DNA of 64,000 nt from Deltaproteobacteria bacterium (lineage in GTDB: Bacteria; UBA10199; GCA-002796325; JACPFF01). This document shows, one piece after another, positions 781 through 61,222 of the stretch (position 1 is its first letter; every line of letters starts with the position of its first letter). Position numbers and translations under genes: made by a program. The notes beneath the pieces were generated by a model, which saw only the letters and a list, made by a program, of their open reading frames with translations, was not told where the DNA came from and did no database searches. The stretch spans positions 65,730-129,729 of the forward strand of contig JACQUX010000009.1 in the NCBI GenBank assembly GCA_016210045.1. The letters run 5' to 3'.

Positions 781-862
781 GGTCCGGGTCCGGACGAGAA
801 GGCGATAGCAGCGCGTGCCGCGCGCTCAGCAGATGTTGGCCCACATTCTAAATCATCAGAGC

Positions 863-917
863 GGGGACAGGTACCTTCAAATGGCCGATCGATCGGCATT
901 TGAAGGTACCTGTCCCC
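863..917. repeat. REP hairpin copy 1: GGGGACAGGTACC...GGTACCTGTCCCC with a fully palindromic loop, inside an 88-nt unit (851-939)
   Basis: Perfect inverted repeat seen directly; the same 88-nt unit recurs at 4120-4208; sits between convergent genes. Confidence 0.85.
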
Positions 918-929
918 ATTCAAATGAAG

Positions 930-3194
930 TTACGCGGCGGTGGGTGACGCCGGCAACGCGACCAAATCGGCCGGCACTTTGGAACCGGCGGTCCATGCAG
1001 TATGCAGCGCAGGACCGAGCGGGTGATCACGGTTGATCCGGATAGCGCAGGCGGCGAAAAATCCGTATGGCCCGACATCTCGGACGATCTCAAGCAGCAG
1101 AACACCGCCGCATTGGAGCCGGATCCGTTCGGGGAAGCGCGCGGCGGCGATCTCGGCATCGATGGCTGAGGGGCGACTGGCGCGGATGACGCCGGCGAGC
1201 ATCCCTCCAAGCACCCACAGATGCCCAGTGCTCGCCAGCCACCATGGAAAGGCCACGTAAGATTGCGCGAGCAGCTGAAGACCGCCGAGTGCGATGCCGC
1301 CCAGAGCCCAATGGGCCATCGGGCTGTGCAACATCTCGCGCCGGACCTGTCGCTGCACACCGGCCTGCAGGTGTCCGCGATCGTGTGCAATCGGGGCCAC
1401 GACCGCCCAGATCGCTTCGAGCATACGCGGCACGGGCTCGCCCTCTATCGCGAGGTCGATCGTGACATCGAGCGGGCGCGGCAGCTCGATCGCCAGCGCG
1501 CGCAGTTCCGCATGGAGCGCGGTCCCCAACGTGGCGGCGGCGTGTTCCGCAGCCGGGAGGTCGTGCTGTAGCCGCACGGGTGGGGGATACGTGGCGTGCG
1601 CTTCGAAGATTGTCGGCGCGCTGCGATCGTTGCGGTCCAGCAACAGCAGTGGCGGCAGACCGCTGCATTCCATCAGTCGTGTCAACTGTTCCCGCAGTGC
1701 CGGTGTGACGCCAGCCGGATCGGTCGTGAATGCAATGCCGTCAAGCCCGAGCGACACCGGACGATGGGCATCCGGATAGGCAAGCGCGCCGATTGCCTCG
1801 ATCCACGCGGGAATGCGCGCAACGTCCGCCGCATCGGCCAAATCGATCCGCCACCAACGGTTGCAGTGCATATGGACCCGATCGCGATGGCTCCGTTCGA
1901 CCTGGAGGCGGCCGTATGGTGCGACGAGCTGTTGGATCGTGTCGGACAGCGGCGTTGCGACAAGTTCTCCCCGATACAAATCCGACGTGGGGAGCGCCGG
2001 CTGCCCTGTCGTGGGAAGCGATGCGACGAGCCGCGCGCGTGCTTGCAGTACGGCAAGTTGTTGGAGCTGTCGCTGCAATTGGCGCCGCAGGCTACGGGCG
2101 CGACGACCGGTGGTCTCGAGTAACAACGGGGCCAAGGCCTGCCGCGCGGCCGCCGCATGGTGTCGGCCGATCGCTTCCAGTGCCCGCTCTGCCGCGCGTT
2201 GAATGCCGCGCCGCGTGTCGTGTCGGCGGATACGATGCAACGCCGGAATCGTTGCTGCGGCATACGCGTCCTGCGCCATCGCAATCGTGTGTGCCAGTTG
2301 TCGCCGAGTTAAGAGTTCGGGCCGCGCCAACAACTGGAGCACCTCGTCGTCGCGTTGACCGCGTGCCGTCTGCAACCATGCGTCGAGTTCCGACATCGTG
2401 CCGACGCGGTCCAGCAGGTCCTGACATTGGAATGCCCGCGCAAGCCCAACCAGCGCTGGGAAGCGATCGCGCTCGGCCTGCCAGACATAATGCGCGGCCG
2501 CGTCAAATTGGGTGTCGAAATGTCCGGGCAAGGTCTCGAGCGCGTCACGCAGCAGTCGTTGCGGACGATGCTCAGTGGGGATGGCGTCCGAGGGGGCGAG
2601 CAAACGGCTGCTGCCGTAGATCGCCAGTGGCACGTTGCCCCACGGCGTGTTGATGGCGACGCGCGTGTCTGTGAGGACTGCGGCCAGCAGCGTGACGGCC
2701 GCTGCGCGATCGGCTCCTGTGGCCGTAAACGCCGCCGTCTCCAAGACCTCGAAGAGGGCCAGCAGCTGCGGGGCGTCGTGCTCCACGCGCGTCGCAGGCC
2801 ACCAGGTCGCGTGGATGCGTGCCGCGCCTGCCGCGCGATCCTGCGGTGCCGCAGCGGCCAATGCGCTCAGTTGCCCGGTCAGGAGTGCGGCGTGGTGTCC
2901 AGTGGAGGCGAGATGTCGTGCGTCAGCGGGGACGACGGCCGGCGGCGTAATGCCGATGCCGCCTGCAGCCGACACAGTATCCAGCGATTCGCCCGCCACG
3001 TCGCCGCGTAGCGCTGTCGGTTCGTCGACGCGCGTCATCCGTAACGGGTCCCCACGCACCGGTCGCGGCGCCCGCCGGTCCTGGGGACCCAGCGATCCGC
3101 CCGCCATCGCATAGGCCGGCCGCAATCCTCCCGGCAGCGAAATCAATTCATGAATTGCCCGACGAAGCCGGGGGAGCCCCACTCGCACCGCCAT
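930..3194 (-). CDS. Large hypothetical protein (754 aa, Ala/Arg/Leu-rich)
   Basis: 2.26 kb ORF; GAGGAAAGGG-like SD just upstream of the ATG at 3194; stop codon TAA lies inside the 3' flank of REP unit copy 1. Confidence 0.5.
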   Translation of the reverse strand: MAVRVGLPRLRRAIHELISLPGGLRPAYAMAGGSLGPQDRRAPRPVRGDPLRMTRVDEPTALRGDVAGESLDTVSAAGGIGITPPAVVPADARHLASTGHHAALLTGQLSALAAAAPQDRAAGAARIHATWWPATRVEHDAPQLLALFEVLETAAFTATGADRAAAVTLLAAVLTDTRVAINTPWGNVPLAIYGSSRLLAPSDAIPTEHRPQRLLRDALETLPGHFDTQFDAAAHYVWQAERDRFPALVGLARAFQCQDLLDRVGTMSELDAWLQTARGQRDDEVLQLLARPELLTRRQLAHTIAMAQDAYAAATIPALHRIRRHDTRRGIQRAAERALEAIGRHHAAAARQALAPLLLETTGRRARSLRRQLQRQLQQLAVLQARARLVASLPTTGQPALPTSDLYRGELVATPLSDTIQQLVAPYGRLQVERSHRDRVHMHCNRWWRIDLADAADVARIPAWIEAIGALAYPDAHRPVSLGLDGIAFTTDPAGVTPALREQLTRLMECSGLPPLLLLDRNDRSAPTIFEAHATYPPPVRLQHDLPAAEHAAATLGTALHAELRALAIELPRPLDVTIDLAIEGEPVPRMLEAIWAVVAPIAHDRGHLQAGVQRQVRREMLHSPMAHWALGGIALGGLQLLAQSYVAFPWWLASTGHLWVLGGMLAGVIRASRPSAIDAEIAAARFPERIRLQCGGVLLLEIVRDVGPYGFFAACAIRINRDHPLGPALHTAWTAGSKVPADLVALPASPTAA

Positions 3195-3255
3195 ACCCTT
3201 TCCTCACTCCCCCGCGGCCCTCTAACAGAGCCCACCCCCGCATGTCCAATACATT

Positions 3256-3318
3256 GCAGGGGGACAGGTACCGTCAACAGCCCATTTTATCGGCATCTGA
3301 CGGTACCTGTCCCCCTGC
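3256..3318. repeat. REP hairpin copy 3 (GCAGGGGGACAGGTACC...GGTACCTGTCCCCCTGC)
   Basis: Inverted repeat seen directly, about 110 bp upstream of the RAYT gene. Confidence 0.85.
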
Positions 3319-3430
3319 AATGACTATGTGATCGATTTTCGAACGGTGGGGTCGTGTGATTGAACAATGTTGTGCGTTCCGCGCGGACAATCATAGCGGG
3401 TTGGTGTGAATACTAGCTGGGATTTGCCCG

Positions 3431-4120
3431 GTGTCGCCGTTGGTCCCGTTTCTGCAACAGGGTATCTCTGGTATGGCTCGATTCCCTCGGTCGCTGCTGT
3501 CGGACCTCACATCGCACTTCCATGTCATCTGTCGCGGCAATAATCGCGGAAAATTATTCCTCGCGGAAGAGGACTATGAGCAGTTTCACGGGCTGATGCA
3601 GCGGGCCTGTGCCCTGTGGTCGGCCGAGATTTATCACTATGTCTTCATGACAACGCATACGCATTTCTTATGTTGTGTCCCGACCATTCAGACGTTGTCG
3701 AAGATGTTTCATTGGATCCAGCTCTTGTACTGCCAATATTATCAGCGAAAATATCCCGCGATTGGTCATTTGTGGCACAGCCGTTTTCGTTCGATCCCTA
3801 TTCTTGCAGAATCCCATCTGTTGCGGTGTGGGCGTTACATCGAGCTGAATCCCGTAGCGGCCGGATTAGCCCTGCAGGCTGCAACGTATCGGTGGAGCAG
3901 TTATCAACGGTATGCCTGCGGGAGACCCGACAATTTGGTCACACTCAGTCCTTGGGTCTTGGCGATGGGTGAAGATGTGGGCGAACGGGCATTCGCTTAT
4001 GCGGCGTATGTGGAAGAGGGGGCCACCGCGGGCAGTGACGAAGATGCGCTGCTGTTCGAACAAAAGACGACTCCCAGACTACCGGAGCAACCCCGCATTC
4101 CCAAATGGTGCACGCGTTAA
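3431..4120 (+). CDS. REP-associated tyrosine transposase (RAYT / IS200-like Y1 HUH transposase, COG1943)
   Basis: HUH motif HTHFL; conserved GHLWHSRFRS, YIELNPVAAGL and YRWSSY blocks typical of RayT/TnpA_REP; flanked by REPs on both sides. Confidence 0.85.
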   Translation: MSPLVPFLQQGISGMARFPRSLLSDLTSHFHVICRGNNRGKLFLAEEDYEQFHGLMQRACALWSAEIYHYVFMTTHTHFLCCVPTIQTLSKMFHWIQLLYCQYYQRKYPAIGHLWHSRFRSIPILAESHLLRCGRYIELNPVAAGLALQAATYRWSSYQRYACGRPDNLVTLSPWVLAMGEDVGERAFAYAAYVEEGATAGSDEDALLFEQKTTPRLPEQPRIPKWCTR

Positions 4121-4131
4121 ATCATCAGAGC

Positions 4132-4186
4132 GGGGACAGGTACCGTCAAATGGCCGATTGATCGGCATTTGAAGGTACCTGTCCCC
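4132..4186. repeat. REP hairpin copy 2 (inside 88-nt unit 4120-4208)
   Basis: Near-identical to copy 1 (2 mismatches); between the RAYT stop and the smc stop. Confidence 0.85.
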
Positions 4187-4198
4187 ATTCAAATGAAG

Positions 4199-7100
4199 TT
4201 ACGCGGCGGCGGTTTTGGTGTCGCGGTCGGTGCGGTCGCGGGCGTGGGCGCCGAGTTTGACGGAGACGATCTTGGAGATGCCGGCCTCTTCCATCGTGAC
4301 GCCGTAGAGCGTGTCGGCCAGTTCCATGGTTCGTTTGTTGTGCGTGATCAGGATGAATTGCGCGTAGTCGGTCATCTCCCGCACCATCTCGTTGAACCGG
4401 TCGATGTTCGCGTCGTCGAGCGGGGCGTCGACTTCGTCGAGCAGGCAAAACGGCGATGGCCGCACCAGGAACATCGCGAAGATCATCGCGACAGCGGTGA
4501 GCGCCTTTTCGCCGCCCGACAGCAGCGTCATGTTCTGCAGCTTCTTGCCCGGTGGCTGCGCGATGATTTCCACGCCGGCCTCCAACGCGTTGGATTCGTC
4601 GGTGAGCACCAGCTTCGCGTTGCCGCCGCGGAACAATTTGGGGAACAGTCGCTCGAAGCGTTCGTTGATCGCGGTGAAGGTTTCCACGAAGCGTTCGCGA
4701 CTGACGCGATTGATCTTTTGAATGGCACGCTGCAACGTGGTCAACGAATTTTCCAGGTCGGTGGCTTGGCGGACCAAGAAGTCGTGGCGTGATTGCAGCT
4801 CTTCGAATTCGGTGATTGCGTCGCTGTTCACGCCGCCGAGTTGTTGCACTTTGGCGCGCAGTTCTTCCGCGCGCGCGCTGGCGGGTTCCAGCGCGAAGTC
4901 GTCGCTGAGGTATTGCGGCGCGGCCTCGGCAATTTCCACGCGATATTTTTCCATGATGTCGTAGCGGAGGAAATTCTGCCGTTCCTGCTGTTGCGCCACT
5001 GTCAGTTCGATTGCGTGCTTCGCCTGGACGGCCGTTTCGTGGCGTCCACGAAGTTCCTTCAAGCCGGCCTCCCGGTCGCGCACTTGTTCCGTGGCATCGT
5101 GAAATCGCCGTTGCACATCTTGTTGCGCTTGCAACGCGGCCTCGGCCTCGCGTGCCGCGGCGGCGCGCAGTTCCTGCAATTGGGTGCGTTGCCGCTCCGC
5201 ACTGGCCACGGCCGCTTCGCCGTCACAGATCTCCGCCGCCTTCCGTTCGCTCGCGGTAATCGTTTCGGCGATCGAGTTGGCCAGTCGTTCGATGTCCCGT
5301 TCGCTCGCGCGCGCGCGTTCCTGTTGCGCCGCAAGGTTGGCGCGAATCCGCGCCAGTCGTTCGTTGGTCTGTTCGAGTTCTTGTCGCAACGCCGTTTCCC
5401 GTTCACGGGCCTCGGTCAACGCGCCGGTGGCGGCGCGACATTGCGTATCGAAATCACTACGCGTGGTGGTCAACGTGGCGGCTTCGGTGCCGGCTGTGTC
5501 GCGTTCCGTCTGAATGCGGAGCGTCGTCTGCTGGGCGTCCGTCTGGGCGCGTTGGATCCGCTCGCCTTCCTGTTCCAAGTGGCGCAGCTGTTGCCGATAT
5601 TGGGCGAGCTGCACTTCTTCCGCATGATGATCTTGGGAGAGCGCCGTGACGCGCTGTTGGAGGCCGGCGATTCGTTCCTGACAGCGCCGCTTCAATTCCT
5701 GCGCGGTCTGTAGCGCGGTCTGCGCCGTCGTCGCCGTGACGCGCAACGTTTCGCATTCCCGTCGTCGCGCGAGCAACAACTGCCCCGTCTCGTGGTCGCT
5801 CCCCCCTGTGACGATTCCGGCAGGGCTGAGCACTTCGCCGTCCAGCGTGACAAACGTCGTGGTCGGGTGTTCCTCCCACAGCCGAACGGCGTCCGCGAGA
5901 CTTTGCACGACGACGACATCCGCTGCGAGCAGCGGAACTAACGCCGTAAACGGTTCCGCCGCCGTGACGAATTGGGTCAGCGGGCCGAGCACTCCATCGC
6001 CGCTGAACGCATCGCTGTTCAGCGTGCCCGTACGTCCCGCCAGCGGAATAAATGTGCTGCGTCCATGTCCGCCGTGTTTCAAATAGTCGATCGCCGCCGC
6101 GGCTGCGCCGATCTCTGCGACCACCAGCGCCTGCAGCCGTTCTCCCAACACCGCAGCCACGGCGGTTTCATATTCCGGGACGACTTGGAGGGCATCGGCC
6201 ACCGTGCCGCGCAACCCAGCGCGCACCGGCTCTTCCACTGTGGGTTGGAGTAAGGCCTTGACGCCGACGCCATAGCCTTCCAAGTTGCGTTGCAATTCCT
6301 CCAACGAATGGAGTCGCGATTGCGCTTGCTGCAGCACCGCTTGGCGCGATTCCACTTCCGCTGCTTGCCGTGCCAATTCGGCTTGTTGTTCCGCAATCGT
6401 GGCTGCGACGCTGCCGCGCTCTTCCCCGAGTTGCAAGAATTGTTGTTCGCGGGCGGCGATCGTTCCGCGGACTTCGGCCAGCGTTTGCTGCGTGGTCCGT
6501 TGTTGTTTCGCCAGCGTGGCGGTTTCTTCTTCCGCACGGGCCAACTGGGTCGCCAGTTCCGCAGTGCGACGTTGCAAGGCCTCCGTTCGCGCCGTGACGG
6601 TGGCCAGTTCCCGCTCCGCGTTCATTTGAATCTGTTCTTGCGCGCGGACTGTTTGATGGACAAGTTCGAGTTCCGCGCGCGCCGCCTGACTGGCGGTCTC
6701 GCCCTCGCGCAGTTCGTCGTCGGCGCTCGCCACGCCAAGATCCGCCGCGAGCTTCGTGTCATTGGCGTGATGCAATGCCTCGCGCCAGGCCGCGACACGG
6801 GCCGCGGCCTCTTCCTGTGCCAGGCAAGCCGCGACGCGTTTCGCTTCCCATTCTTCCACTTCCTTCGCGCTGAGCGCCAAGCGGGTTTCGTACAAATGGA
6901 GTTGGTTCTGTAATGCGTAGCTGTGTTGTTGCGCGGCGGACAACGCGGTCTCGATGGCGGCCATTTCCAACCGCAACTCCGCAATCGCTGTTTCTTGGGC
7001 ATTCAACGCAGCCGCAGCGCTCGCTTCCGCCTCGCACTGTTGTTGCAACTCCGTCGCGGTCCGCGTCTGTTCGGTCTGCGCGAGCGTCCATTGATGCGCA

Positions 7101-7798
7101 GCGACGCGTAAATCGATGGTGCGGAGTTCGTCGGCCAGTTCCCGATACCGTTCCGCCTTCTTCGCCTGGCGCTGCAACGCCCCCAACTGGCGCTTCAGTT
7201 CTTGAATCAGGTCTTGCAGCCGCAGCAAATTTTGCTGCGTGGCTTCCATCTTGCGTTGCGCGGCCTCACGCCGATGGCGAAATTTGGAAATTCCCGCCGC
7301 CTCTTCCAATAAATAGCGCCGTTCCTCCGGTTTGGAAGAGACGATCTGGCCGATTCGGCCTTGTTCGACGATCGAGTACGCCTTGGTCCCCGTTCCGGTC
7401 CCGAGAAACAGGTCGATGATGTCTTTCAATCGGCACGGGGTCTTATTAATGAAATATTCGCTCTCGCCGGAACGATAGAGTCGTCGTCCGACTGTGATTT
7501 CGGCGTAGTCGGCGAATTCGGCCGGGGCGCGGCCGTCGCTGTTGTCGAACGTGATGAAGACACTCGCCATCCCCATCGGGGCGCGGGACTGGCTGCCGGC
7601 GAAGATCACGTCGAGCATTTCCCCGCCGCGCAGATGTTTGGCGGATTGCTCGCCCATCACCCAACGAATCGCATCGACGACGTTGCTCTTCCCGGACCCG
7701 TTCGGTCCGACGATCCCGGTAATGCCGCGTTCAAATTGGATGATGGTCCGGTCGACGAACGACTTGAATCCGACCAATTCGATAGATTTCAGATGCAT
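4199..7798 (-). CDS. smc: Chromosome partition protein Smc
   Basis: N-terminal Walker A FKSF...GPNGSGKSN; long coiled coils; hinge; C-terminal signature LSGGEKALTA and Walker B LLDEVDAPLD. Confidence 0.95.
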   Translation of the reverse strand: MHLKSIELVGFKSFVDRTIIQFERGITGIVGPNGSGKSNVVDAIRWVMGEQSAKHLRGGEMLDVIFAGSQSRAPMGMASVFITFDNSDGRAPAEFADYAEITVGRRLYRSGESEYFINKTPCRLKDIIDLFLGTGTGTKAYSIVEQGRIGQIVSSKPEERRYLLEEAAGISKFRHRREAAQRKMEATQQNLLRLQDLIQELKRQLGALQRQAKKAERYRELADELRTIDLRVAAHQWTLAQTEQTRTATELQQQCEAEASAAAALNAQETAIAELRLEMAAIETALSAAQQHSYALQNQLHLYETRLALSAKEVEEWEAKRVAACLAQEEAAARVAAWREALHHANDTKLAADLGVASADDELREGETASQAARAELELVHQTVRAQEQIQMNAERELATVTARTEALQRRTAELATQLARAEEETATLAKQQRTTQQTLAEVRGTIAAREQQFLQLGEERGSVAATIAEQQAELARQAAEVESRQAVLQQAQSRLHSLEELQRNLEGYGVGVKALLQPTVEEPVRAGLRGTVADALQVVPEYETAVAAVLGERLQALVVAEIGAAAAAIDYLKHGGHGRSTFIPLAGRTGTLNSDAFSGDGVLGPLTQFVTAAEPFTALVPLLAADVVVVQSLADAVRLWEEHPTTTFVTLDGEVLSPAGIVTGGSDHETGQLLLARRRECETLRVTATTAQTALQTAQELKRRCQERIAGLQQRVTALSQDHHAEEVQLAQYRQQLRHLEQEGERIQRAQTDAQQTTLRIQTERDTAGTEAATLTTTRSDFDTQCRAATGALTEARERETALRQELEQTNERLARIRANLAAQQERARASERDIERLANSIAETITASERKAAEICDGEAAVASAERQRTQLQELRAAAAREAEAALQAQQDVQRRFHDATEQVRDREAGLKELRGRHETAVQAKHAIELTVAQQQERQNFLRYDIMEKYRVEIAEAAPQYLSDDFALEPASARAEELRAKVQQLGGVNSDAITEFEELQSRHDFLVRQATDLENSLTTLQRAIQKINRVSRERFVETFTAINERFERLFPKLFRGGNAKLVLTDESNALEAGVEIIAQPPGKKLQNMTLLSGGEKALTAVAMIFAMFLVRPSPFCLLDEVDAPLDDANIDRFNEMVREMTDYAQFILITHNKRTMELADTLYGVTMEEAGISKIVSVKLGAHARDRTDRDTKTAAA

Positions 7799-7960: not shown

Positions 7961-9331
7961 ATGCGACAGAACGACAACATGCAGTCAACGGTCTGGGGCG
8001 CAGTGCGGGCATGCGGCGCGGCGTTGTTGCTCGTCACGGCGGCCTGCGGCAGTAGCACCGGCACCGACACGAGTAGCAGTAGTGGCGGATCGAGCAGCAG
8101 CAGCGGCGGGAGCTCCACCACCCGCAACGTGACCGGTTCGGTCTCGCTCAGCTCGCTTTCCACCTCGCTGAGCGCCAAAGGGGCCAAGACCGCAGTCGAT
8201 GCCTGTACCTCGGTCTCCATCTGTTGCACCGGCTACACCGGCGAATCCTGGACCGTGGCCACGTTGAACAGCGATTGTACCTTTACATTGGCGTTGCCGC
8301 TGGAAAACTACTGCTTCTGCGGCTTCTTCACCGGCACCGACGCCGACAGCGACAACTGCCCCGACACCTACGCCAACTACGTACTGGAAACCATCCCGGT
8401 CTTTGAAGACGTCGGCGGCGCGGTGGACGACATCGACCTCGGCGAATGCGACGGCGACGGCTGCGCAACCGATGTCGACACCCAAGTCGACGTGGACCAA
8501 GACGGTATTGCGAATAGCGACGACACCGACGACGACGGCGACGGCACCGCCGACACCGACGACGACTACACCGACGATGGCTGGCTCAACGCGTGGCAAA
8601 TCGACCTCGACGGCGACAGCCTGCCGGACATCTTTGAAGATCTCTGGGCCGACTACACCGATGCCGACGACGACGGGATTCCGAACTTCCTCGACTTCGA
8701 CATCGACGGCGACGGTGAAGACAACCTGACCGACACCGACGACGACGGCGACGGGACTGCGGACGACACCGACACCGACGACGACGGCGACGGCATCGCC
8801 GACAGCGAAACCTGGGACGACGACGACGGCGACGGCGTCTGGAACTTCCTCGACGGCGACAGCGACGGCGATGGCCTGTTCGCCGACTTCGACGACGACG
8901 ACGACAACGACGGCACGGACGACACGACCGACACCGACGACGACGGCGACGGCCTGACCGACGCCCAAGAAGAAGACGATACCGACGGCGACGGCTTTCC
9001 CGACATGATCGACACCGACGACGACAACGACGGCACGGCCGACACGGCGGACGACGACGACGACGGCGACGGCACGCCGGACGCCTCCGATCCGGATGCT
9101 ATACCGGACGATGAACAGGGATCGCCCTCGTGCTCGGACGACTTCTCGTGTCAACAGATCGTGGAGGAAAATTCCCCGATGCTTGGTGTGATCGGCGCCA
9201 CGTCATGTAATGATTCGAGCCGGTGTCAGACCGATTGCAACCAACTGACGTCGACCGAAGAGGTGTCGCAATGCACCGCCGGATTCGAATCGGCCGGGAA
9301 CACCTGTACGGATAACATCTGCACCTTCTAA
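7961..9331 (+). CDS. Secreted/lipoprotein with about 10 acidic DxDxDG(T/I)xD calcium-binding-type repeats (thrombospondin-type-3-like) and Cys-rich termini
   Basis: Signal peptide with LLLVTAAC lipobox-like site; tandem DTDDDGDGTAD repeats; C-terminal Cys-rich module. Confidence 0.6.
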   Translation: MRQNDNMQSTVWGAVRACGAALLLVTAACGSSTGTDTSSSSGGSSSSSGGSSTTRNVTGSVSLSSLSTSLSAKGAKTAVDACTSVSICCTGYTGESWTVATLNSDCTFTLALPLENYCFCGFFTGTDADSDNCPDTYANYVLETIPVFEDVGGAVDDIDLGECDGDGCATDVDTQVDVDQDGIANSDDTDDDGDGTADTDDDYTDDGWLNAWQIDLDGDSLPDIFEDLWADYTDADDDGIPNFLDFDIDGDGEDNLTDTDDDGDGTADDTDTDDDGDGIADSETWDDDDGDGVWNFLDGDSDGDGLFADFDDDDDNDGTDDTTDTDDDGDGLTDAQEEDDTDGDGFPDMIDTDDDNDGTADTADDDDDGDGTPDASDPDAIPDDEQGSPSCSDDFSCQQIVEENSPMLGVIGATSCNDSSRCQTDCNQLTSTEEVSQCTAGFESAGNTCTDNICTF

Positions 9332-32423: not shown

Positions 32424-35400
32424 TGCGTCTCGGTCGCCTGGTGCGACATGCTGGATGTGGGTTCCGATTCGTCATGTGTGTAGTTGCGCTGCTGAGTTTC
32501 GCGGCGCGGGTGGACGCCGCCAGCTTCGATCCGAAACTCAAGTGGCATCAACATAAGACTCCGCATTTCATGATCTATGCCGCGCGTTCGCTCGACGGAA
32601 TCGCGCAGCGCGTCGGCCAATTGGCCGAAGAAGCGTACGCGATCTTGCCGCAAAAGTTCGACTGGAAGCCGCTCGGCCGAACGGTGGTTGTTCTCACCGA
32701 CGTCCAAGATGTGGCCAACGGGCTCGCGACCGTGCTGCCGTACAACTATCTCCATCTGCGGGTCACCGCGCCGCGTCCCGACACCGCGCTGGCCAACTAC
32801 GACGATTGGCTGCGCACGCTGATCATGCACGAGTTCACGCATATCATTCATATGGATCAAGCGCGGGGCGTGATGAAACTCCCGCGGTTTCTGCTCGGCA
32901 AACTTGTCTCGCCGAACGGCGTGCTGCCGGGCTGGATGCGCGAGGGCATCGCCGTGTACGAGGAAACACAACAGACGCAAGGCGGACGCAATCGCGGCAG
33001 TTTCAGCAATATGTTGATCCGCACGGCGGTGGACCAACAAAAATTCCCGAAGATCGACCAAGCCGACGGCCTCGGTTGGCGCTGGCCCGGATTCCTGCCG
33101 CAGTACATTTACGGCGGGAAATTCCTGGAATGGTTGGCGAACACCTACGGCGAAGACAAATTGATCCGCTTTCAAAAGAAGTCCGCAGCCAGTCCGCTCT
33201 TTTTCATGAACAACCTGTTGGCGAAACAGGTCTGGAAAAAGAGCTTCTACCAACTCTGGCGGGAATGGCAGGCCGAAGTCTCGAAAACCGCACAAGCCGA
33301 AATCACTGCGGTCCGCGCGGCAGGAGAAACGCCGTTGGAGCCGGTGACCGACGACGGCACGCATCTCTCCGCATTGGCGCTGTCGCCGGATGGGACGCAT
33401 TTGGTCTACACGACCACCGATCCGCATCGGCCGACCGAAATTCGGCTGCGCGATCTTCGCAACGGCGAAGAACAGCGGATTCGTGCGAAGCAGGGGGCGA
33501 CGCAGGCCGCGTTCGATCCGAGCGGGAATCTGATTGCGTATGCGGCGTATACGGCGAATCACGGCTATCGCTACTATTCCGATATCTTCGTGTTCGATCG
33601 GCGCGACGGCAAACTGCGCCGGCTCACGGCGAGTCGCCGCGCACAAGACCCGAGTTTCGCCCCGGACGGAAAATCGCTGCTCTATGTCGTGGAAGACGCC
33701 GGCACGCAGCGCTTGGTCCGCTACGATTTGACCACGTGGAAGGAGCAGCCGCTGCCGATTCCGCACGCGCCGTTCACGCGCTTTAGTCATCCACAGTGGT
33801 CGCCGGACGGCCAATGGCTCGCGGTGTCGTCGTGGCAAGCGGGACAGCAAGATATCTATCTCTATCGGCCGGATGGCAGGCGCGTCCAACGGATCACGAA
33901 CGATCGCGCGCTCGATTTGAGTCCGTCGTGGGATCGGACCGGGCGATATCTCTATTTTTCCTCCGACCGCAGCGGGATTTCAAACGTGTACCGTTACGAC
34001 ATGCGCCGCCGGCGCGCGGAACGTCTGACGAACGTCGTCACCGGCCTGTTCGAGCCGCAGCCGGCGCCGGATGGCAAGACGCTGTACGCGCAGTATTATC
34101 ACGGTGCTGGGTTTGGAATTCGGAAGTTGGCGATCGAAGGGGTGGCTGGTGACTGGGGGCTGGTGACTGGGGATCGGACCATGGGTCACCAATCGCCAGC
34201 CACCAGCCACCAGCCACCAGTCACGAATCCCCAATCCCCAGCCACCAGTCACCAGTCACCGCTTTCCCCGTCACCCTTCCCCAGCAAGCGCTACCACGGT
34301 TTGAGTCCGCGGCTCTTTATCCCGCGCTACTTCATTCCCGGCTTTGTCGCGACGGGGAGCGGTGTGTTGCTCAGCGCGGTGACCGGCAGCAGCGATCCGC
34401 TGCGTTGGCATCTGTGGCAAGCGGGCGGCACGTATCGAACCGATGCGAAGTATCCCGGGTATTTTTTCAATTACACGCTGAATCGCTTCTCGCCGATCAT
34501 GAATTTCGGCGTACTCAATTACGCGACCGACTTCGGGAACCTGACCTTCCTGCACGCCGACGGCACGCTGCGGACCGTGCATATGTATGAAAAACGGCTG
34601 CGCGGCTATGCCGGCATCGCGGTGCCGTACAAACGCCAGATCTTTTCGCTCCAATATTTCATGGAGAATCGGGACAACATTCCGGCGCTGACGGCGGAAG
34701 AGCGCGCGTTGCTGAATCTGGACCGTTTCGCCGGATTCTCCGCGACGTATGGCTGGGGACGGCAGGAACAATATCCGGCCTCGATCAGTCCGGAAGAGGG
34801 GCATCGGTTAGTGATGAACTTCACGGTCACCGACAAGATCCTCGGCAGTAACGAACCGAACGAACAACAAATCTTCTCCGGCGATTTCCGCGAATATATC
34901 AAACTCCCGTGGCGGCATCATGTGCTCGCATTGCGCGTGAAGGGCGGCAAGACCTGGGGCGATACGCTGGTCCAAGGCACATTCGGCATGGGCGGAGCGC
35001 TCGGCGAAGGCGCGCTCGGCGGCGGGGGCGGCTTCACGTATTTCCCCTTGCGCGGACTCCCGGCTGCGGCGATGTCGCGCGCTAACGCGATGTTGATGTC
35101 CGCCGAATATCGCCTGCCGCTCGGTTCGCCGCAACGCGGGCTCGGTACCACGCCGTTCTTTTTACAAAACATCCATGCCGCATTGTTTGCCGATTTCGGG
35201 AATGCGTGGAACAACGGCGAAGACACCGGCAAATGGTTCTTCGATCGTTTTTTCCTCGGCACGGGTGTTGAACTACGCGGCGACTTCGTGGTCGGCCACG
35301 GACTCCCAGTCCAAGGTCGGCTCGGCTACGGCGTCATTGCCGTCAATCGTGGACGGCTCGGCGCCCTCACCGATTCGCTGCTCGGCAACCAAGTCAAATA

Positions 35401-38670: not shown

Positions 38671-38772
38671 GGTCGGGTCGGTTGCTCCTTACATCACTTG
38701 TCGGCCGGCGGCGGAAAAAAGTTGCGTGTCTCAACGTGTGGACAAAGCCAAGCCCCCCAAATACATCCGAAT

Positions 38773-38827
38773 GGGGACAGGTACCTTCGAAGGTGCGCCA
38801 AATGGGCATCGCATGGTACCTGTCCCC
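38773..38827. repeat. REP hairpin copy 4, inside the conserved leader of giant paralog A
   Basis: GGGGACAGGTACC...GGTACCTGTCCCC seen directly. Confidence 0.85.
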
Positions 38828-38904
38828 ACTGGGATGCAGTTGGGGGCGCAACTTTCTACGCGCGCTGCCGATGAACGGAGGCGAAGGGGTCCAAGGGAAC
38901 GAGC

Positions 38905-41613
38905 ATGCGGCGAGTGGGTTCACATGGGTTGGGAGTGCATCCGCGTATGGCAGCGCGACCGGGTGCGGTGCGGCAGGCGGACGCGGTGTATGACCACGCG
39001 CTGCGGACTGGGGGCACGGTCACGGAGGCGTGGCGCGCGGTGCGGGAGGGGCAGCATCAGATCTGCTTCGTCACTGCGGGGGATGACCCCGAGGCGGACG
39101 TCGCGGCAATGGCCACAGCGGGCACGAGTGCCGCACCGCTCACGTGGCCGCATCTCCTCGATGCGAGCGGGATTGGGAATGCGTTGGCCCAGTTAGCAGG
39201 GCGAGATGCGCAATCGGTGCAGCAATCGGTGCGTTTGGACTTGCGTCCGAAGCAAGACACTGCGGCCGTGTTGCGTGCGTTCCAGGTCGCCGCGACGACC
39301 AGTGCCAAAGTGGGGGATACGCGCGGAGCATGGCAGGCGGTCGTGGAATTGTACGATCATCAGCATACGCTGCTCGTGCGTTACGTCCCGGCAGCGGTGG
39401 ACCAACCGCCCCGCTTCGAATTCCCGTTGACCGCGACGACGCAGCTGGGAAAGGCGCTCCGCGACTTCGTGCGCGGACGGGCGGAGCCACTCGGCGCTGC
39501 ATACAGCGCGGAACGGATCGAGATCCTGTTGGCGGTCGAGTGCAGCGCGTTGCGCGAGCATGCGCGCCAGCAACTGCAGGAGGCCGCAACAGCAGTACTC
39601 GAACAATGCTGCGCCGCCGGATGTCAGAATGTTGTGATTCGAGACGCGACTGCAACGATGACTGCGTTGCGCGATGGTAGAATGGTTGGGCCGAGCGGAG
39701 CCCCTGTGGTTGTAGAGACGGCAGTATCTGCTGTTCCCCCGCCGACCACACCATCTGCCTCGCCGGCCTCGCTCGACCGTCAACGGATGGAAATCGCGCG
39801 TCTGCTCGATGCAAACGATCCGCCGTGGCCTGTGCCGACTCGTTTGCCCGTGCCGCTCACAGCGCGGGAACGGTGGCTCGCATACGGCGAGCCGGAGGAG
39901 TTTACCGTACCGCAAGCAGCCACGAGCGTGGCCGCAGTGGTGGGCACGATAACGGCTCGCGCGCGTACTGCCACGCGTCCGTTGAAGATCGTTTTCCCTT
40001 GTGTGTCGACGCAGGCGCTCCAGATATTATTATTAGTCAAAAGTCCGGTGCCGATCCTGATCCAGGACGGATCGAAAGTCGAGTATTGCCGATATCCGGA
40101 TCGGGGCGATGTCTTGGGCGGCATCGACGTGGCCGATATTGGAGAACATCTCCACCTGACCATTTTGGCAATCGAGGCGTTGGCTACTACAAAAACAGCT
40201 GAACTGTTGCAACTGTTCCCGCTCTCGATTACGCTGACCCCGTCGCTGCTCGCGCCGACCCGCGCGCAACAGGAGTGGGCCGAGGCGATGGTCGCACGAC
40301 TGGCGTTGGCTGGCTGGGGTCGAGTCGTGGTGCGGACGGACGCCGGCCAGGTGCTGGCGGCCGGGTATCACCCCATCGCAATGCCCGCCGCCTTCTGGCC
40401 CGAGCCTCTCTTTCAACGGGTCGACCCGGTCGATCCTGTCGTGGATGCAGGTGACGCGATCTTGGTTGACGGCGAGCGGATCGGGATCGAGGCGCTGCGT
40501 CGTCTGGTCGCTGCGCCGGCACGACCGATTGAGGTCTATTACACAGACCCTGAATTCCCTTCCGAAGTCGCAGCCATGTTCCCGGAATTGGAAGCGGCGC
40601 TGAGTGACGATGGGGATGTGTTGGTCAGCTTTTCTACCCCAGTGCGCCAAGTGGCCTTCGGGCGCTCGGCGATTATTCAACGCTACGCGACGCTGGCATG
40701 GGTGGTGCTGGATGCCGTCGGCGTGAAACTCAGTGCGCCCGAGGCGGTGCGTGTGGCGGAGTCGTGTCTCACGAATTTCGGGATCGAATCGTTGTCGGCA
40801 CGTGGGCGGGAACTCTACTTCCAAGGTGTGCGGGGTTCCGTGGCGCAGCTGCAACAACAGCGACGGGACTTTGGTTTTGCCGTTCCATCCTTTGCGGCGC
40901 TGGCCGGGGCGCTGCGCGAGGCCTATTACGCGCTTCGTTTCGGAGATGGCCGGAGCGCACGCGAACTTTCCGTAACCCTCGATTTGACGGCCGTGTCGTA
41001 TGGCTTGTTCCCGCATGTGCATCACAACGATCCGGACAAGCGCTTTCCCGCGTTTGAGCGGGCGTTGTCGAACCCACAGCCCAGCGCGGTTCCGCCAGTA
41101 GGGTTGCTCTCGTTGTTGGAACAATTCCCGCGACTCCTGCAACTGGCCGCGCGAACGTTGCAAGGCACGTGGCAGCTGCTGTTGCAGGAGGCGATTGTCG
41201 ATCCGCCGAAATACGTCCGCCGCTTTGCGGGGAGGGTCTCGCGGCGCGGGACGATCGCGCTCGACAACCCGAGTGCGGCCGACGAGGCGATCCGCATCGC
41301 GCTGCTGGCACTCGCACTGCAAGAAATTCCAAACGCCACTGCACGGCAAGTCGCGCGGGCGTATCGCGCGGTGAGCGTAATCGCAGTGCCGCAGCAGAGC
41401 ACACCCGCCGAGTTGGCCCGACCGCTCCGCGCGGCGCATCATCCGTGGCACGCGGCGTGGGCAGTGGCGCGCGCGGTGTTGACCGAACCTTCGTCATCGG
41501 GCGCCAGAGGGCTTTATCTTAGTGGAGTGCTGATCCGCGCCGATCTCGATCCAGTCACCGCCGCGTTACTGGACCAACTGCTCCCGCCGCCTGCTCTACG
41601 GCGCAAGGGGTAG
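38905..41613 (+). CDS. Giant modular protein paralog A (902 aa), uncharacterised family
   Basis: N-terminal 300 aa is about 75% identical to paralog B; shares repeated modules (xxLxxAGWxxVVVRTDAGQVLAA and PxRQVAFG) with the 1695- and 3114-aa ORFs. Confidence 0.6.
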   Translation: MRRVGSHGLGVHPRMAARPGAVRQADAVYDHALRTGGTVTEAWRAVREGQHQICFVTAGDDPEADVAAMATAGTSAAPLTWPHLLDASGIGNALAQLAGRDAQSVQQSVRLDLRPKQDTAAVLRAFQVAATTSAKVGDTRGAWQAVVELYDHQHTLLVRYVPAAVDQPPRFEFPLTATTQLGKALRDFVRGRAEPLGAAYSAERIEILLAVECSALREHARQQLQEAATAVLEQCCAAGCQNVVIRDATATMTALRDGRMVGPSGAPVVVETAVSAVPPPTTPSASPASLDRQRMEIARLLDANDPPWPVPTRLPVPLTARERWLAYGEPEEFTVPQAATSVAAVVGTITARARTATRPLKIVFPCVSTQALQILLLVKSPVPILIQDGSKVEYCRYPDRGDVLGGIDVADIGEHLHLTILAIEALATTKTAELLQLFPLSITLTPSLLAPTRAQQEWAEAMVARLALAGWGRVVVRTDAGQVLAAGYHPIAMPAAFWPEPLFQRVDPVDPVVDAGDAILVDGERIGIEALRRLVAAPARPIEVYYTDPEFPSEVAAMFPELEAALSDDGDVLVSFSTPVRQVAFGRSAIIQRYATLAWVVLDAVGVKLSAPEAVRVAESCLTNFGIESLSARGRELYFQGVRGSVAQLQQQRRDFGFAVPSFAALAGALREAYYALRFGDGRSARELSVTLDLTAVSYGLFPHVHHNDPDKRFPAFERALSNPQPSAVPPVGLLSLLEQFPRLLQLAARTLQGTWQLLLQEAIVDPPKYVRRFAGRVSRRGTIALDNPSAADEAIRIALLALALQEIPNATARQVARAYRAVSVIAVPQQSTPAELARPLRAAHHPWHAAWAVARAVLTEPSSSGARGLYLSGVLIRADLDPVTAALLDQLLPPPALRRKG

Positions 41614-42264: not shown

Positions 42265-42337
42265 AGGCGGTCAATTGAAAGTTTGATTTTTAATTGTCAC
42301 AGTGTGACGCCCAGTCCATCTCCTCAACTCCATCCTA

Positions 42338-42394
42338 GGGGGACAGGTACCGTCAAATGTGCGCCAAATGGGCATCGCATGGTACCTGTCCCCC
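42338..42394. repeat. REP hairpin copy 5, inside the conserved leader of giant paralog B
   Basis: CCTAGGGGGACAGGTACC...GGTACCTGTCCCCCTAGG seen directly. Confidence 0.85.
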
Positions 42395-42468
42395 TAGGAT
42401 GTACTGGGAACGCAACTTTTGGCGGGTGTGGCCGATGAAGAGAGGCGAAGGGATCTCAGGGAACGAGC

Positions 42469-45400
42469 ATGCGACGCGTCGGTTCACATGGTTTGGGAGT
42501 GCATTCGCGTGTGGGAGCGCGTCCGGGCGCGGTGCGGCATGCGGATGCGGTGTATGACCACGCGCTGCGGACTGGCGGCACGGTCGCCGATGCGTGGCGC
42601 GCAGTGCGGGAGGGGCAGCATCGGATCTGCTTCGTCACTGCGGCGGGGGAGGACCCCGGGGCGGAGGCCGCTGCGCTGGCCTCTGCGGGCAGGGTCTCGG
42701 CGCCCCTCACGTGGTCGGAGTCGCTCGGCGCAACGGGGATTGGCAATGCACTGATCCAGCTCGCCGCGCGTGAACCCGATGCGGCGCAACGGCCGGTACG
42801 GCTCACGTTGCGACCGAATCCCGGCGACGTAGTGCCGGCATTTTTCCAAGCCGTGACGACGAGCGCCAAACTCGGTGACACGCGCGGGGTGTGGCAAGCG
42901 GTCGTGGAGCTGTACGATCATCAGCGTGCATTAGTGGTTCGCTACGGTCCGGCCGTTGCGGATCAACCGCGCCGCTTTGAATTCCCGCTGACCGCGACGA
43001 CGCAAGTGGCGAAGGCCTTGCGCGACTTGGTGCGCAATCGGGTGGTGCCGCTCGGCGCCGCATACGGCGCGGAACGGGTCGAGATCCATTTGGCAGTGAC
43101 GCTCGACGCGTTGCGCGAACATTCGCGGAAACAATTGACAACTGCGGCGACCGAGGCGCTCGAACGATGTCGCGCTGCCGGATGGCGCGAGGTCGTGATC
43201 CGGACGCTGCAGGAAGTCGTCGCGGCGTTACAACAGGGTGTCGTGGTTGCGAACACGGGACGTGCGCCGCATCCGAGCGGCACGGCCGTTGGGCAGGTCG
43301 ACGCTCCGGCGTCGATGCATGCGATAGTCGCGTTGATGAATCGAGCAGAGCTCGATCCCTGCTCCCTCCCGCTCCTGCCGCGTTGGGCTGTGGCACTGCC
43401 CATGGAGGGCTTCGCCCCGCCGCTGCCGGTGGAGACTCGCATCCCACGAGGCCCTTCACTGACGGCAACGGATGTGGCGCGCGAGTTGTTATCGGCCACG
43501 CCAGCCGGGGAGGGATGGACGGCTGCGCTGCTCCAGTCGACACTGCAGCAGCAGGCGCGGGATCGGCGTCGTGTCTATGCGCTGCTGCGGCCCTTCGCCG
43601 TGCCTCCGTTGCAGTTACTGGCCACGGTGGAGAGCGATGCCTCGTTCTGGTTGCTGGCGACGGACGGGATGTATCTGCGACATGTCGATGCGGCCGGACA
43701 GTTACGAGGCTATCAATATTGCACCGACGCCGACCGGGCCGCGCTCGTCGTGGAGGAATTATTGGCGATGGCTGCAGCGCCGGAATTTGAGTGTTTGCGA
43801 CAGACCCCGTTCGAATTGCAAATTGCGACCCGCGGCGTCCCCGCCGATCGGCACCTACAGCAGTGGGCGCAGTCTGTGGCCGCGTGGCTCCGCGACGCGG
43901 GCTACGAGCACGTCATCATCACGGCAGAACGAGGCCCGATTTTGGCCGCGACCGATATGCGGTTCGCAGAGGCCGCGACCGATGAGCCCGCCCTCTTGGC
44001 ATCGCCGCCGACCGATGCCGTGGAACTCGTGATGCCATCGGCCGCTGCCGCCGTGCGCGAGGCATGGGACGCGCTCCCGACGCGTCTGCCGCCGGCCGGG
44101 GCGTGCGTGATCGACGGTAGTGCGGATACCGCAGCCATGGTCTCGTTTTGGCTATTCGTACACGGGCTTTGGAGCGCCGCGAATCCGCGCCGTGGAGACG
44201 TGTTCTTGCGAGTCAACGGCCGCATCGTGGCGCACGCATTGTTCGATACGGCGAGCGGCGCGCCGTTGGGGCTGGAGATCGACGGCGCTGCCGTCACGGT
44301 AGCACAACTTCGTACGGTGTTGATCACTGACGAGGAGTTAGAGGGCGGGAAATCCCGATTGATCTTTGCCCCGCTTTTTGCGCCGGTCGAGATTCGCTAT
44401 CGCACGCCGACGCTTCCGGCCGGTGTGGCAGCCCTCTTCCCGTTGTTGGAGGAGAGCTATCATGACATGGGGTTTGCGGCGCTCGTCTTTTCCACGCCGC
44501 TGCGCCAATTCGAATTCGGCACCGCGGCCAGTATCGGACGATGGACGCATTGGCTGACCACAATGGCGGCGGCCTTCGATATCCCACTCCAACCCAACGA
44601 AGCGCGCAGCGTGGCCGAATATTTTTTGTGGCCGTTTGGCATCAAGCCGCTACTCCCGGCCGTCGCAACCATGCTCGGCGCGGATCGGGGTCGGATTTCT
44701 CGAAATGCGGAAGGCTATGGCACTCCACTGCCCGGCAGCGTCGTGGAGAGCTGCCGGCGGGCATTGGCGGAGCTGCGGCTGCTCCAAGTCGCGGCGCGGA
44801 GGCAAATTCGCGTCGTGTCGCTGGGTGGCACGGACTTGCCCGGATGGGTCGCGCAGCAAATAAAAACTGCGGAGGCGTTCGATGCCGCGCTCATGACGGC
44901 TCCTGACGACCCACGCAAATTGCCGTTTCTGCTGCTCTGGACGTTGGGCTTGATCCCCGATTCCCGATTTAGTCGACTCAGCCCGTTATTGCAAACGGTC
45001 TGGGATGCTGTGGTCAAGGGCATGGCTGATCCACGGTCGTATCTCCGCCTCTTTACCTTGATTTGGATGGTGAACACGGGAAGCGGGAAGGCAAAGGCCA
45101 AAGGTCGAAGACGGCTCGACCTGCCCGAGGCCGGACGCGTCGAGGTCATTCGCTTGCAACTGATCGCACTGGTGTTGGAGCTGGCGGACCGCGCCGTGGC
45201 CCCGGAGATCATCCGAGGACTGTATCAATCGATTCATCTGTTGCCGGTGCCGCTCGAGCTGGATAGTACGGCACCTCGTTATCCGCTCGCGTCCTCCCAG
45301 CACCCGTATGGAGAGCTCTTTACCACGCTGCAGCAAATGCTGCCGCGACTCGAACTCGCTGCGCAAGTCGCAGCGACCGTTGACACCGAGACCTTGTTGG

Positions 45401-61065: not shown

Positions 61066-61133
61066 GAGCCCCCTGATTGACGCCGCAGCCCAGTCGGCCT
61101 ATCAATCGCGCCTGGCATGATAATAACTGCATC

Positions 61134-61196
61134 GCAGGGGGACAGGTACCGTCGGATATAGGAAATATGCGGATTTGTCGGTACCTGTCCCCCTGC
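61134..61196. repeat. REP hairpin copy 6, immediately upstream of birA
   Basis: GCAGGGGGACAGGTACC...GGTACCTGTCCCCCTGC seen directly. Confidence 0.85.
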
Positions 61197-61222
61197 GAGG
61201 TGTTGAGGAATTGGCAGCGATT

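Follow-up and report, generated by a model that had tools for sequence, protein, structure and literature searches.

Introduction

Repetitive extragenic palindromic (REP) sequences and REPINs are short palindromic intergenic repeats that occur in many copies, lie near stop codons and form a long hairpin from two inverted halves. In the REP/REPIN-RAYT systems (Nunvar 2010; Bertels and Rainey 2011; PMC3116915, PMC3337134), they flank a single gene for a Y1 HUH transposase, the REP-associated tyrosine transposase (RAYT). Di Nocera et al. (2013, PMC3733652) describe REP ends as often providing the stop codon of flanking open reading frames (ORFs), and REPs as preferring convergent and unidirectional junctions. 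According to the same paper, the 3' end of a transposase gene can be overlapped by its own REPs or terminal inverted repeats (TIRs). Here we analyze a 64,000-nt stretch of contig JACQUX010000009.1 (assembly GCA_016210045.1) from the metagenome-assembled genome (MAG) of an uncultivated "Deltaproteobacteria" bacterium. In this stretch, two near-identical 95-nt repeat units abut the stop codons of smc and of an orphan gene for a 754-residue protein, hyp754. The whole stretch is called the window, and all coordinates are relative to its first letter. We favor the interpretation, at a probability of roughly 55%, that the units are copies of a REP/REPIN- or TIR-type repeat with a RAYT/TIRYT-like transposase, and that the three final codons of hyp754 were replaced in a conversion event whose donor was the smc copy. 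Repeat ends as a source of stop codons are already published, and the present case belongs to that known kind, in an uncultivated lineage. It is modestly novel in that repeat homogenization appears to have moved a few codons of smc to a different gene.

With its six repeats and one transposase gene, the window resembles the REP/REPIN-RAYT systems in having short palindromic intergenic repeats close to stop codons, a long hairpin made of two inverted halves, and repeats on both sides of a Y1 HUH transposase gene. It differs from them in four respects. GTAG, the tag of those systems, is found next to the stem in none of the 12 arms. The halves do not appear to be hairpins themselves: each inverted half contains only a 6–8 nt palindrome (GGTACC), and the two halves together make a single long hairpin. 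Four of the six copies lie 5' of genes. Finally, the best NCBIfam match of the transposase is indeed the REP-associated tyrosine transposase family (REP_Tyr_transpos), but its score of 49 bits is under the 80-bit cut-off.

The TIRYT/TIRtron systems offer a second comparison. As described by Di Nocera et al. (2013, PMC3733652), these are moderately abundant families in which a RAYT-like transposase is flanked by GGGGWSAS inverted repeats and a repeat can overlap the 3' end of the transposase gene, as is the case here. The sequence GGGGACAG occurs in every arm of the window family and fits the GGGGWSAS consensus as given there. Placed by this repeat motif, and lacking the GTAG tag, the window family fits the GGGGWSAS (TIRYT) group better. 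On the other hand, the text of that paper mentions neither the 13-nt core GGGGACAGGTACC nor a hairpin of the 55-nt format, and the host in our case is a MAG of an uncultivated lineage. Elements of the IS200/IS605 family such as IS608 likewise combine a Y1 HUH transposase with subterminal hairpins and a conserved tetranucleotide at one end, which in the window family would be YAAC. Unlike these insertion sequences, the window repeats carry no transposase gene, and YAAC is only a putative target and cleavage site.

Two Near-Identical Units Abut the Ends of hyp754 and smc

The two units form a direct repeat at 849–943 (copy 1) and 4118–4212 (copy 2), in the same orientation and 3.27 kb apart. They are identical at 92 of 95 bases (97%), with mismatches at 876, 890 and 941. 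The original prediction, made from the letters of the window, had proposed a REP-containing element of 88 nt with about 98% identity; the element is real and slightly longer. Each copy starts with a plus-strand TAA (849–851; 4118–4120), contains the inverted 13-mers GGGGACAGGTACC and GGTACCTGTCCCC at a distance of 42 nt from start to start, and finishes with AGTTA-CGCGGCGG-Y-GG.

Copy 1 is located between gene X (plus strand, ending at 780) and hyp754 (930–3194, minus strand), a protein-coding gene with a coding-type GC pattern. Copy 2 is located between the RAYT-like gene (3431–4120, plus strand) and smc (4199–7798, minus strand), which encodes a protein of 1199 residues with the Pfam domains SMC_N and SMC_hinge. 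The AGTTA terminal motif of copy 1 (928–932) reads TAACT on the minus strand and holds the TAA stop of hyp754 (930–932). In the same way, the motif of copy 2 (4197–4201) holds the minus-strand TAA stop of smc (4199–4201). The GCC GCG codons in front of both stops also fall inside the shared stretch, as had been pointed out before, and the proteins end in ...SPTAA* (hyp754) and ...KTAAA* (Smc). The last codons of hyp754, Pro-Thr-Ala-Ala (933–943, minus strand), match those of smc at 8 consecutive bases and at 2 of the next 3. At its other end, copy 2 overlaps the RAYT-like gene as originally described: its first three bases are the plus-strand TAA stop of that gene (4118–4120). The equivalent TAA of copy 1 (849–851) terminates only a 73-residue ORF without coding-type GC pattern. 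Gene X is open in plus-strand frame 1 from window position 1 to its stop at 778–780 and shows a coding-type GC pattern. With this open frame before copy 1, and with the end of the RAYT-like gene at 4120, each of the two copies is placed between convergent genes, in agreement with the original prediction.

An assembly artifact as the source of the match was considered and rejected, because independent contigs show the same arrangement. Logan contigs from two independent sequencing runs (L002, L003 and L005) reproduce the unit junctions, among them those of copy 2, and one of them (L005) joins the two copies: it starts inside copy 2, covers the transposase gene and hyp754, and reaches into copy 1. 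A miniature inverted-repeat transposable element with a target-site duplication was also rejected, because no direct repeat flanks 849–943 or 4118–4212. The Logan contigs (L001–L005) end exactly 30 nt into any sequence that is common to two loci, as would be expected from an assembly graph with a presumed k of 31. Their ends independently locate the start of repeat identity to the exact base.

The match between the two units is unlikely to be a chance event, as two counts show. The sequence CCGCCGCG, which precedes the TAA of both genes, occurs in the window at a frequency of 2.7e-4 per site. Among the 59 window ORFs of at least 250 residues, hyp754 and Smc are the only ones that end in Ala-Ala.

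The Ala-Ala End of Smc Is Ancestral

The original prediction also held that both genes had received the element at their very 3' ends, by insertion or by replacement, and that it now supplies their stop codons and last residues. In this reading, the entire 88–95 nt unit including TTA-CGC-GGC would be mobile and would encode the Ala-Ala-stop of Smc as well as that of hyp754. The inclusion of the Ala-Ala codons in both copies, and the improbability of a chance match, are in its favor. The homologues of Smc contradict it. A C-terminal -VA (64 proteins) or -AA (34 proteins) is present in 98 of the 120 best Smc homologues (P0001–P0120), and the tails before this final dipeptide differ in length and sequence. 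Two of these 98, orthologues with 52% identity (L030 and L032), are encoded in loci of 15.6 kb from which the repeat core is absent, and their genes end in GCC GCG GCG TAG (...EAAA*) and GTG GCG GCG TAA (...TVAA*). The comparison with such orthologues had been proposed together with the original prediction, and its outcome refutes an element-supplied end of Smc in the terms set there. Because 98 of 120 homologues, those of the two core-free loci among them, end alike, the Ala-Ala end of Smc is, on this comparative evidence, ancestral and not a contribution of the element.

Two more observations speak against mobility of the entire unit. In a related genome described below, the repeat abuts the hyp754 homologue with different last codons, and identity begins only at CC-TAA. 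Moreover, CGCGGCGG, which follows the element end in copies 1 and 2, is missing after the ends of the other four family members in the window. We therefore consider this explanation highly improbable. What stands of the original claim is that the TAA lies within the conserved end of the repeat family; the Ala-Ala of Smc has to be removed from it.

The ssrA degradation tag ends in Ala-Ala and is recognized by ClpXP. The conserved -VA/-AA end of Smc resembles this tag, and by analogy it may mark the Smc of this clade for regulated proteolysis. As a separate observation, several Smc homologues (P0004, P0020, P0041, P0054, P0072, P0085, P0096, P0101 and P0106) are about 1640–1716 residues long and contain PF14528 and PF14890. 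We take these to be intein/homing-endonuclease domains, in which case those smc genes would hold an intein.

Concerted Evolution and a Probable Overwriting of the hyp754 Tail

A search of 5.8 billion proteins returned only one homologue of hyp754 (62% identity over 653 residues with 3 gaps). Neither Pfam nor NCBIfam matched hyp754, gene X or any of seven other repeat-adjacent proteins. The sole homologue (L004) comes from sample SRR22388245, which also contains an Smc with 84% identity to that of the window (L001). The genome in this sample, here called the relative, allowed us to compare both repeat-bearing gene ends between two lineages. In the relative, smc ends with ...ACC GCC GCC GCC TAA CTTCATCCTAGCGGGGACAGGTACC and the hyp gene with ...CCA CAT CCC TAA CTTCATCCTAGCGGGGACAGGTACC. 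All four gene ends, two per genome, share an identical TAA-CTTCAT junction. Since both loci of the relative run into the repeat with this identical junction, we conclude from the sequences that the repeat at both sites is older than the split between the window genome and the relative.

The sequence just inside the junction behaves differently. CAT and GGGG are separated by 6 nt, which read TTGAAT in both window copies and CCTAGC in both copies of the relative, a difference at 5 of 6 positions. This inner flank is identical within each genome and different between the genomes, despite about 97% identity of the smc coding DNA that adjoins the repeat. By this pattern, the evolution of the two copies is concerted in each genome.

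The same comparison shows where the identity between the two loci starts: at CC-TAA in the relative and at CCGCCGCG-TAA in the window genome. The smc tail KTAAA is kept in both genomes. The hyp tails (SPTAA* vs ALPPHP*) cannot be aligned over their last ~25 nt, and the codon position of the hyp stop is not the same in window genome and relative, yet the stop is still joined to CTTCAT.

These observations suggest the following sequence of events. The palindromic repeats would be mobilized or maintained by the Y1 transposase encoded at 3431–4120, and the TAA would be contributed by the element end or by its preferred target. The 8–11 further shared bases (CCGCCGCG before TAA) would not belong to the element; they would be the codons with which smc ancestrally ended in Ala-Ala. 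Within each genome, the two copies would be homogenized, with gene conversion as the most likely cause. In the window lineage, the conversion tract would have overrun the element by 8–11 nt in the direction from the smc copy to hyp754, and would thereby have replaced the last three codons of the latter. We infer that smc was the donor and hyp754 the recipient, since both genomes retain the smc tail but differ in the hyp tail. The earlier proposal that the element replaced the 3' ends of coding sequences can thus be retained in part: the last three codons of hyp754 look replaced when compared with ...ALPPHP* in the relative, whereas the Smc tail does not.

Several points weigh against this interpretation. 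Only two full copies of this subtype are available for examination. The copies of the relative are known for 25 nt only, since its contigs break inside the repeat, so that concerted evolution rests on a short sequence. The conversion tract outside the element measures only 8–11 nt and consists of GC-rich Ala-codon sequence. A weak alternative alignment of CACCCATCGCTCTC from the relative with CACCCACCGCCGCG from the window would make Thr-Ala-Ala of hyp754 native. Finally, a TAA that is part of the element and a TAA that is its preferred target would look the same unless an empty site were at hand.

Coincidence would account for the tails as follows: the TAA comes from the element end or the target, and the eight extra bases are shared only because two tails rich in Ala and in GC both terminate in GCC GCG by accident. 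The Ala contents of hyp754 (17.6%) and Smc (15.3%), the abundance of GCCGCG (244 occurrences in 128 kb) and the weak alignment, which sets P-T-A-A of the window opposite P-I-A-L of the relative, are compatible with this possibility. The low frequency of CCGCCGCG and the absence of a further Ala-Ala end among the 59 long ORFs argue against it, and the clear homogenization of the two copies within a genome supplies a mechanism. We rate coincidence as a doubtful and weaker alternative to conversion.

Could the entire region between the copies have moved instead? The 95-nt copies might bound a 3.27-kb module, a "TIRtron" with cargo made up of hyp754, a repeat and the RAYT-like gene, which integrated at a repeat downstream of smc. 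The direct-orientation copies bracket exactly the orphan gene and the transposase gene. The GC content is mixed (54% in the RAYT-like gene, 67% in hyp754, 62% in the window), hyp754 has its single homologue, and the gene neighbors of smc differ in the 52%-identical relatives. Another repeat copy of the window is located at the edge of a segmental duplication. The relative, however, seems to share the arrangement, and its boundary identity starts only at CC-TAA. Neither an empty site nor a second copy of the module was found, and a module alone would leave the smc codons at the end of hyp754 unexplained. Integration of such a module is improbable in our view.

If conversion from smc to hyp754 is the correct explanation, the locus illustrates, cleanly and on a small scale, the remodeling of the very 3' ends of genes by palindromic repeats, with the Smc tail untouched and the tail of its orphan neighbor apparently overwritten. 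For annotators and genome scanners it carries a caution, namely that identity between repeat copies can outrun the mobile unit.

The Repeat Family and Its Ends

Copies 1 and 2 belong to a family of six, each with the structure GGGGACAGGTACC-N29-GGTACCTGTCCCC, always as an inverted pair at constant spacing. The cores start at 863, 3260, 4132, 38773, 42339 and 61138. In the window, the 13-nt core gives 13 arm matches, where 0.8 would be expected by chance. The arms are invariant, and the loops and inner flanks vary among the six copies. The core hairpin of copy 1 (863–917) has its arms at 863–875 and 905–917 and forms a perfect 21-bp stem, with four further pairs beyond a bulge. In copy 2 (4132–4186), a G-A mismatch interrupts the stem at position 14; the perfect 21-bp stem that had been predicted for both copies thus applies to copy 1 only. 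The fold of the 111-nt stretch 840–950 around copy 1 has a minimum free energy (MFE) of -59.8 kcal/mol with a z-score of -8.9, and that of the 111-nt stretch 4109–4219 around copy 2 an MFE of -60.0 kcal/mol. RNA from either strand of both units reaches about -60 kcal/mol (z-scores -7.8 to -10.3). For all six copies, folded in stretches of 91–111 nt, the MFE ranges from -52 to -65 kcal/mol and the z-score from -7.7 to -11.5. With this family, these folds and a Y1_Tnp match in the neighboring gene, the earlier description of the element as transposase-associated, REP-like and able to form a very stable hairpin is borne out.

The arm table and the fold of copy 1 place the core within an extended imperfect palindrome (TCAT...ATGA) at 853–927, which is the probable extent of the element apart from the terminal motif. 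A CAT located 6–7 nt outside the core is kept in 11 of 12 aligned arms. In five of the six elements, one end reads YAACTn-CAT (ATG-nAGTTR on the other strand), and the opposite end reads A(A/G)TA-CAT or similar. Because these two ends are unlike, the elements are polar. Where R is A in AGTTR, the opposite strand reads TAA, and in both copies this TAA is the stop of the abutting gene.

IS608, a member of the IS200/IS605 family, uses TTAC as its target. The conserved YAAC may point to a related preference, in which the Y1 transposase would insert the element 3' of YAAC and the TAA would be the native stop of each gene. Smc ends at its ancestral -AA with neither truncation nor extension, as if the element had been inserted just after a native TAA-C, and YAAC is invariant beside one end of five of the six elements, with variable bases farther out. 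However, a conserved flank resembles a conserved element end as long as no empty site can be compared. The Smc orthologues at core-free loci carry TAG-C and TAA-A instead of TAA-C. The hyp stop differs in position between the two genomes and is nevertheless joined to CTTCAT, which would rather suggest that the TAA travels with the element. The unchanged Smc end thus favors a target and the shifted hyp stop favors an element-borne TAA. We consider insertion behind native stops less likely than not.

The four remaining members lie in promoter-side regions between divergently oriented ORFs. One, at 3247–3323, is 5' of the RAYT-like gene and separates the divergent starts of this gene and hyp754. 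The others are found in divergent intergenic regions at 38760–38836, 42326–42402 and 61125–61201. The member at 42326–42402 marks the edge of a segmental duplication that is shared with the sequence from 38760 onward. This duplication (38700–39588 and 42266–43149; 76–87% identity) begins at about the two repeat copies and extends into the 5' parts of two orphan ORFs, 38905–41613 (902 residues) and 42469–47556 (1695 residues), neither of which has a Pfam match. Rfam, searched over the whole window at gathering thresholds, gave no family, and a literature search for the core sequence returned unrelated primer matches only.

The Transposase and the Spread of the Core

The gene at 3431–4120 (plus strand; NCBI places its start at 3473) encodes a RAYT/TIRYT-like Y1 (HUH) tyrosine transposase of IS200-like type, which matches Y1_Tnp of Pfam with 42.3 bits at a cut-off of 23 bits. 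Across 15 homologues, neither the HxH motif (H62-x-H64) nor the motif YIELNP (Y122-I-E-L-N-P) shows any variation; their C-terminal tails are free to vary. A comparison with the PDB gave no sequence match. Family members flank the gene on both sides (3247–3323 and 4119–4195). A 48%-identical homologue (L036) is accompanied by a variant core, GGGGACAGGCACC, and has AATTGGGGACAGGCACC-N11-GGTGCCTGTCCCCAATT on both of its sides; the downstream hairpin overlaps its TGA stop.

A hairpin pattern scan of GTDB representative genomes identified 24 loci (L006–L029) with the labels Elusimicrobia, Aminicenantes, Planctomycetota, Bacillota, Prevotella (Bacteroidota) and Acidobacteria, that is, in phyla other than that of the source MAG. 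There, exact inverted pairs of GGGGACAGGTACC span 53–57 nt overall and have lineage-specific flanks. Homologous Y1 transposases are encoded near the core in those loci that were checked; at Prevotella MAG loci with the exact core, the transposase homologues nearby are 32% identical. A scan of metagenome contigs with the lineage-specific end pattern yielded one chance match, which was without the left arm. The combination of this core with Y1 transposases across lineages would make a good system for studying the co-evolution of transposases and repeat recognition. As a tentative generalization, to which we give less credence than to the conversion at hyp754 itself, homogenization can carry an Smc -AA tripeptide and stop onto an unrelated gene, and the GGGGACAGGTACC family would represent an ancient partnership of transposase and repeat across at least seven phylum-level groups that may use a stop-containing YAAC target.

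In many of the copies from other phyla (L006, L007, L009, L014–L016, L019–L022, L025, L026 and L029), the outer flank of an arm is complementary to its own inner flank. An example is AACTGAGAAA-core-TAACTCAGTT. Each half could therefore fold alone and expose the conserved core as its loop. In window copies 1 and 2, the right half is of the same kind (CATTTGAA-core-TTCAAATG).

Possible Roles at the RNA Level

The original prediction had assigned the hairpins a role as bidirectional terminators. As intrinsic terminators for both strands, they would be kept at convergent junctions for this reason, and the location of copies 1 and 2 between convergent genes, together with a very stable stem on both strands, is consistent with such a role. 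The stem is followed by a T-run on neither strand (the tails are ATTCAAATGAAG on the plus and GCTCTGATGATTTA on the minus strand), a terminator scan did not call the hairpins, and four of the six family members occupy divergent 5' regions. For these three reasons, the hairpins are not canonical intrinsic terminators, a dedicated function in bidirectional termination is not supported, and we judge it an unlikely explanation.

In the RNA, the hairpin begins 2–12 nt after each stop. REPs located at most 15 nt from a stop codon stall ribosomes in E. coli, as PMC12306157 reports in citing Liang, Rudd and Deutscher (2015, PMC4427526). The stable stem close to the stop is alike, but the repeat families are unrelated, and the comparison with these E. 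coli REPs is one of functional analogy only. On this analogy, the hairpin would most likely act as a barrier to 3' exonucleases that protects the 3' end of the mRNA, and it could also slow or dampen translation termination.

Other Features of the Locus

The Smc tails of the window genome and of the relative (L001) are separated by a 15-nt indel at window positions 4214–4228 (GCACCGACCGCGACA, reading RTDRD), in a stretch of DNA where identity is about 97% apart from this indel. Beyond smc, a plus-strand ORF of 456 residues (7961–9331) encodes many Asp-rich repeats with a 39-nt period (GAC GAC GAC GGC GAC GGC ...) and has no Pfam match; a gene of 456 residues of this kind also adjoins smc in the relative (L001 and L002). 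Elsewhere in the window, two short repeat arrays at 34187–34263 and 51958–52041, 17.7 kb apart, have a 7/14-nt period of the CACCAGC / CCCCAGC type.

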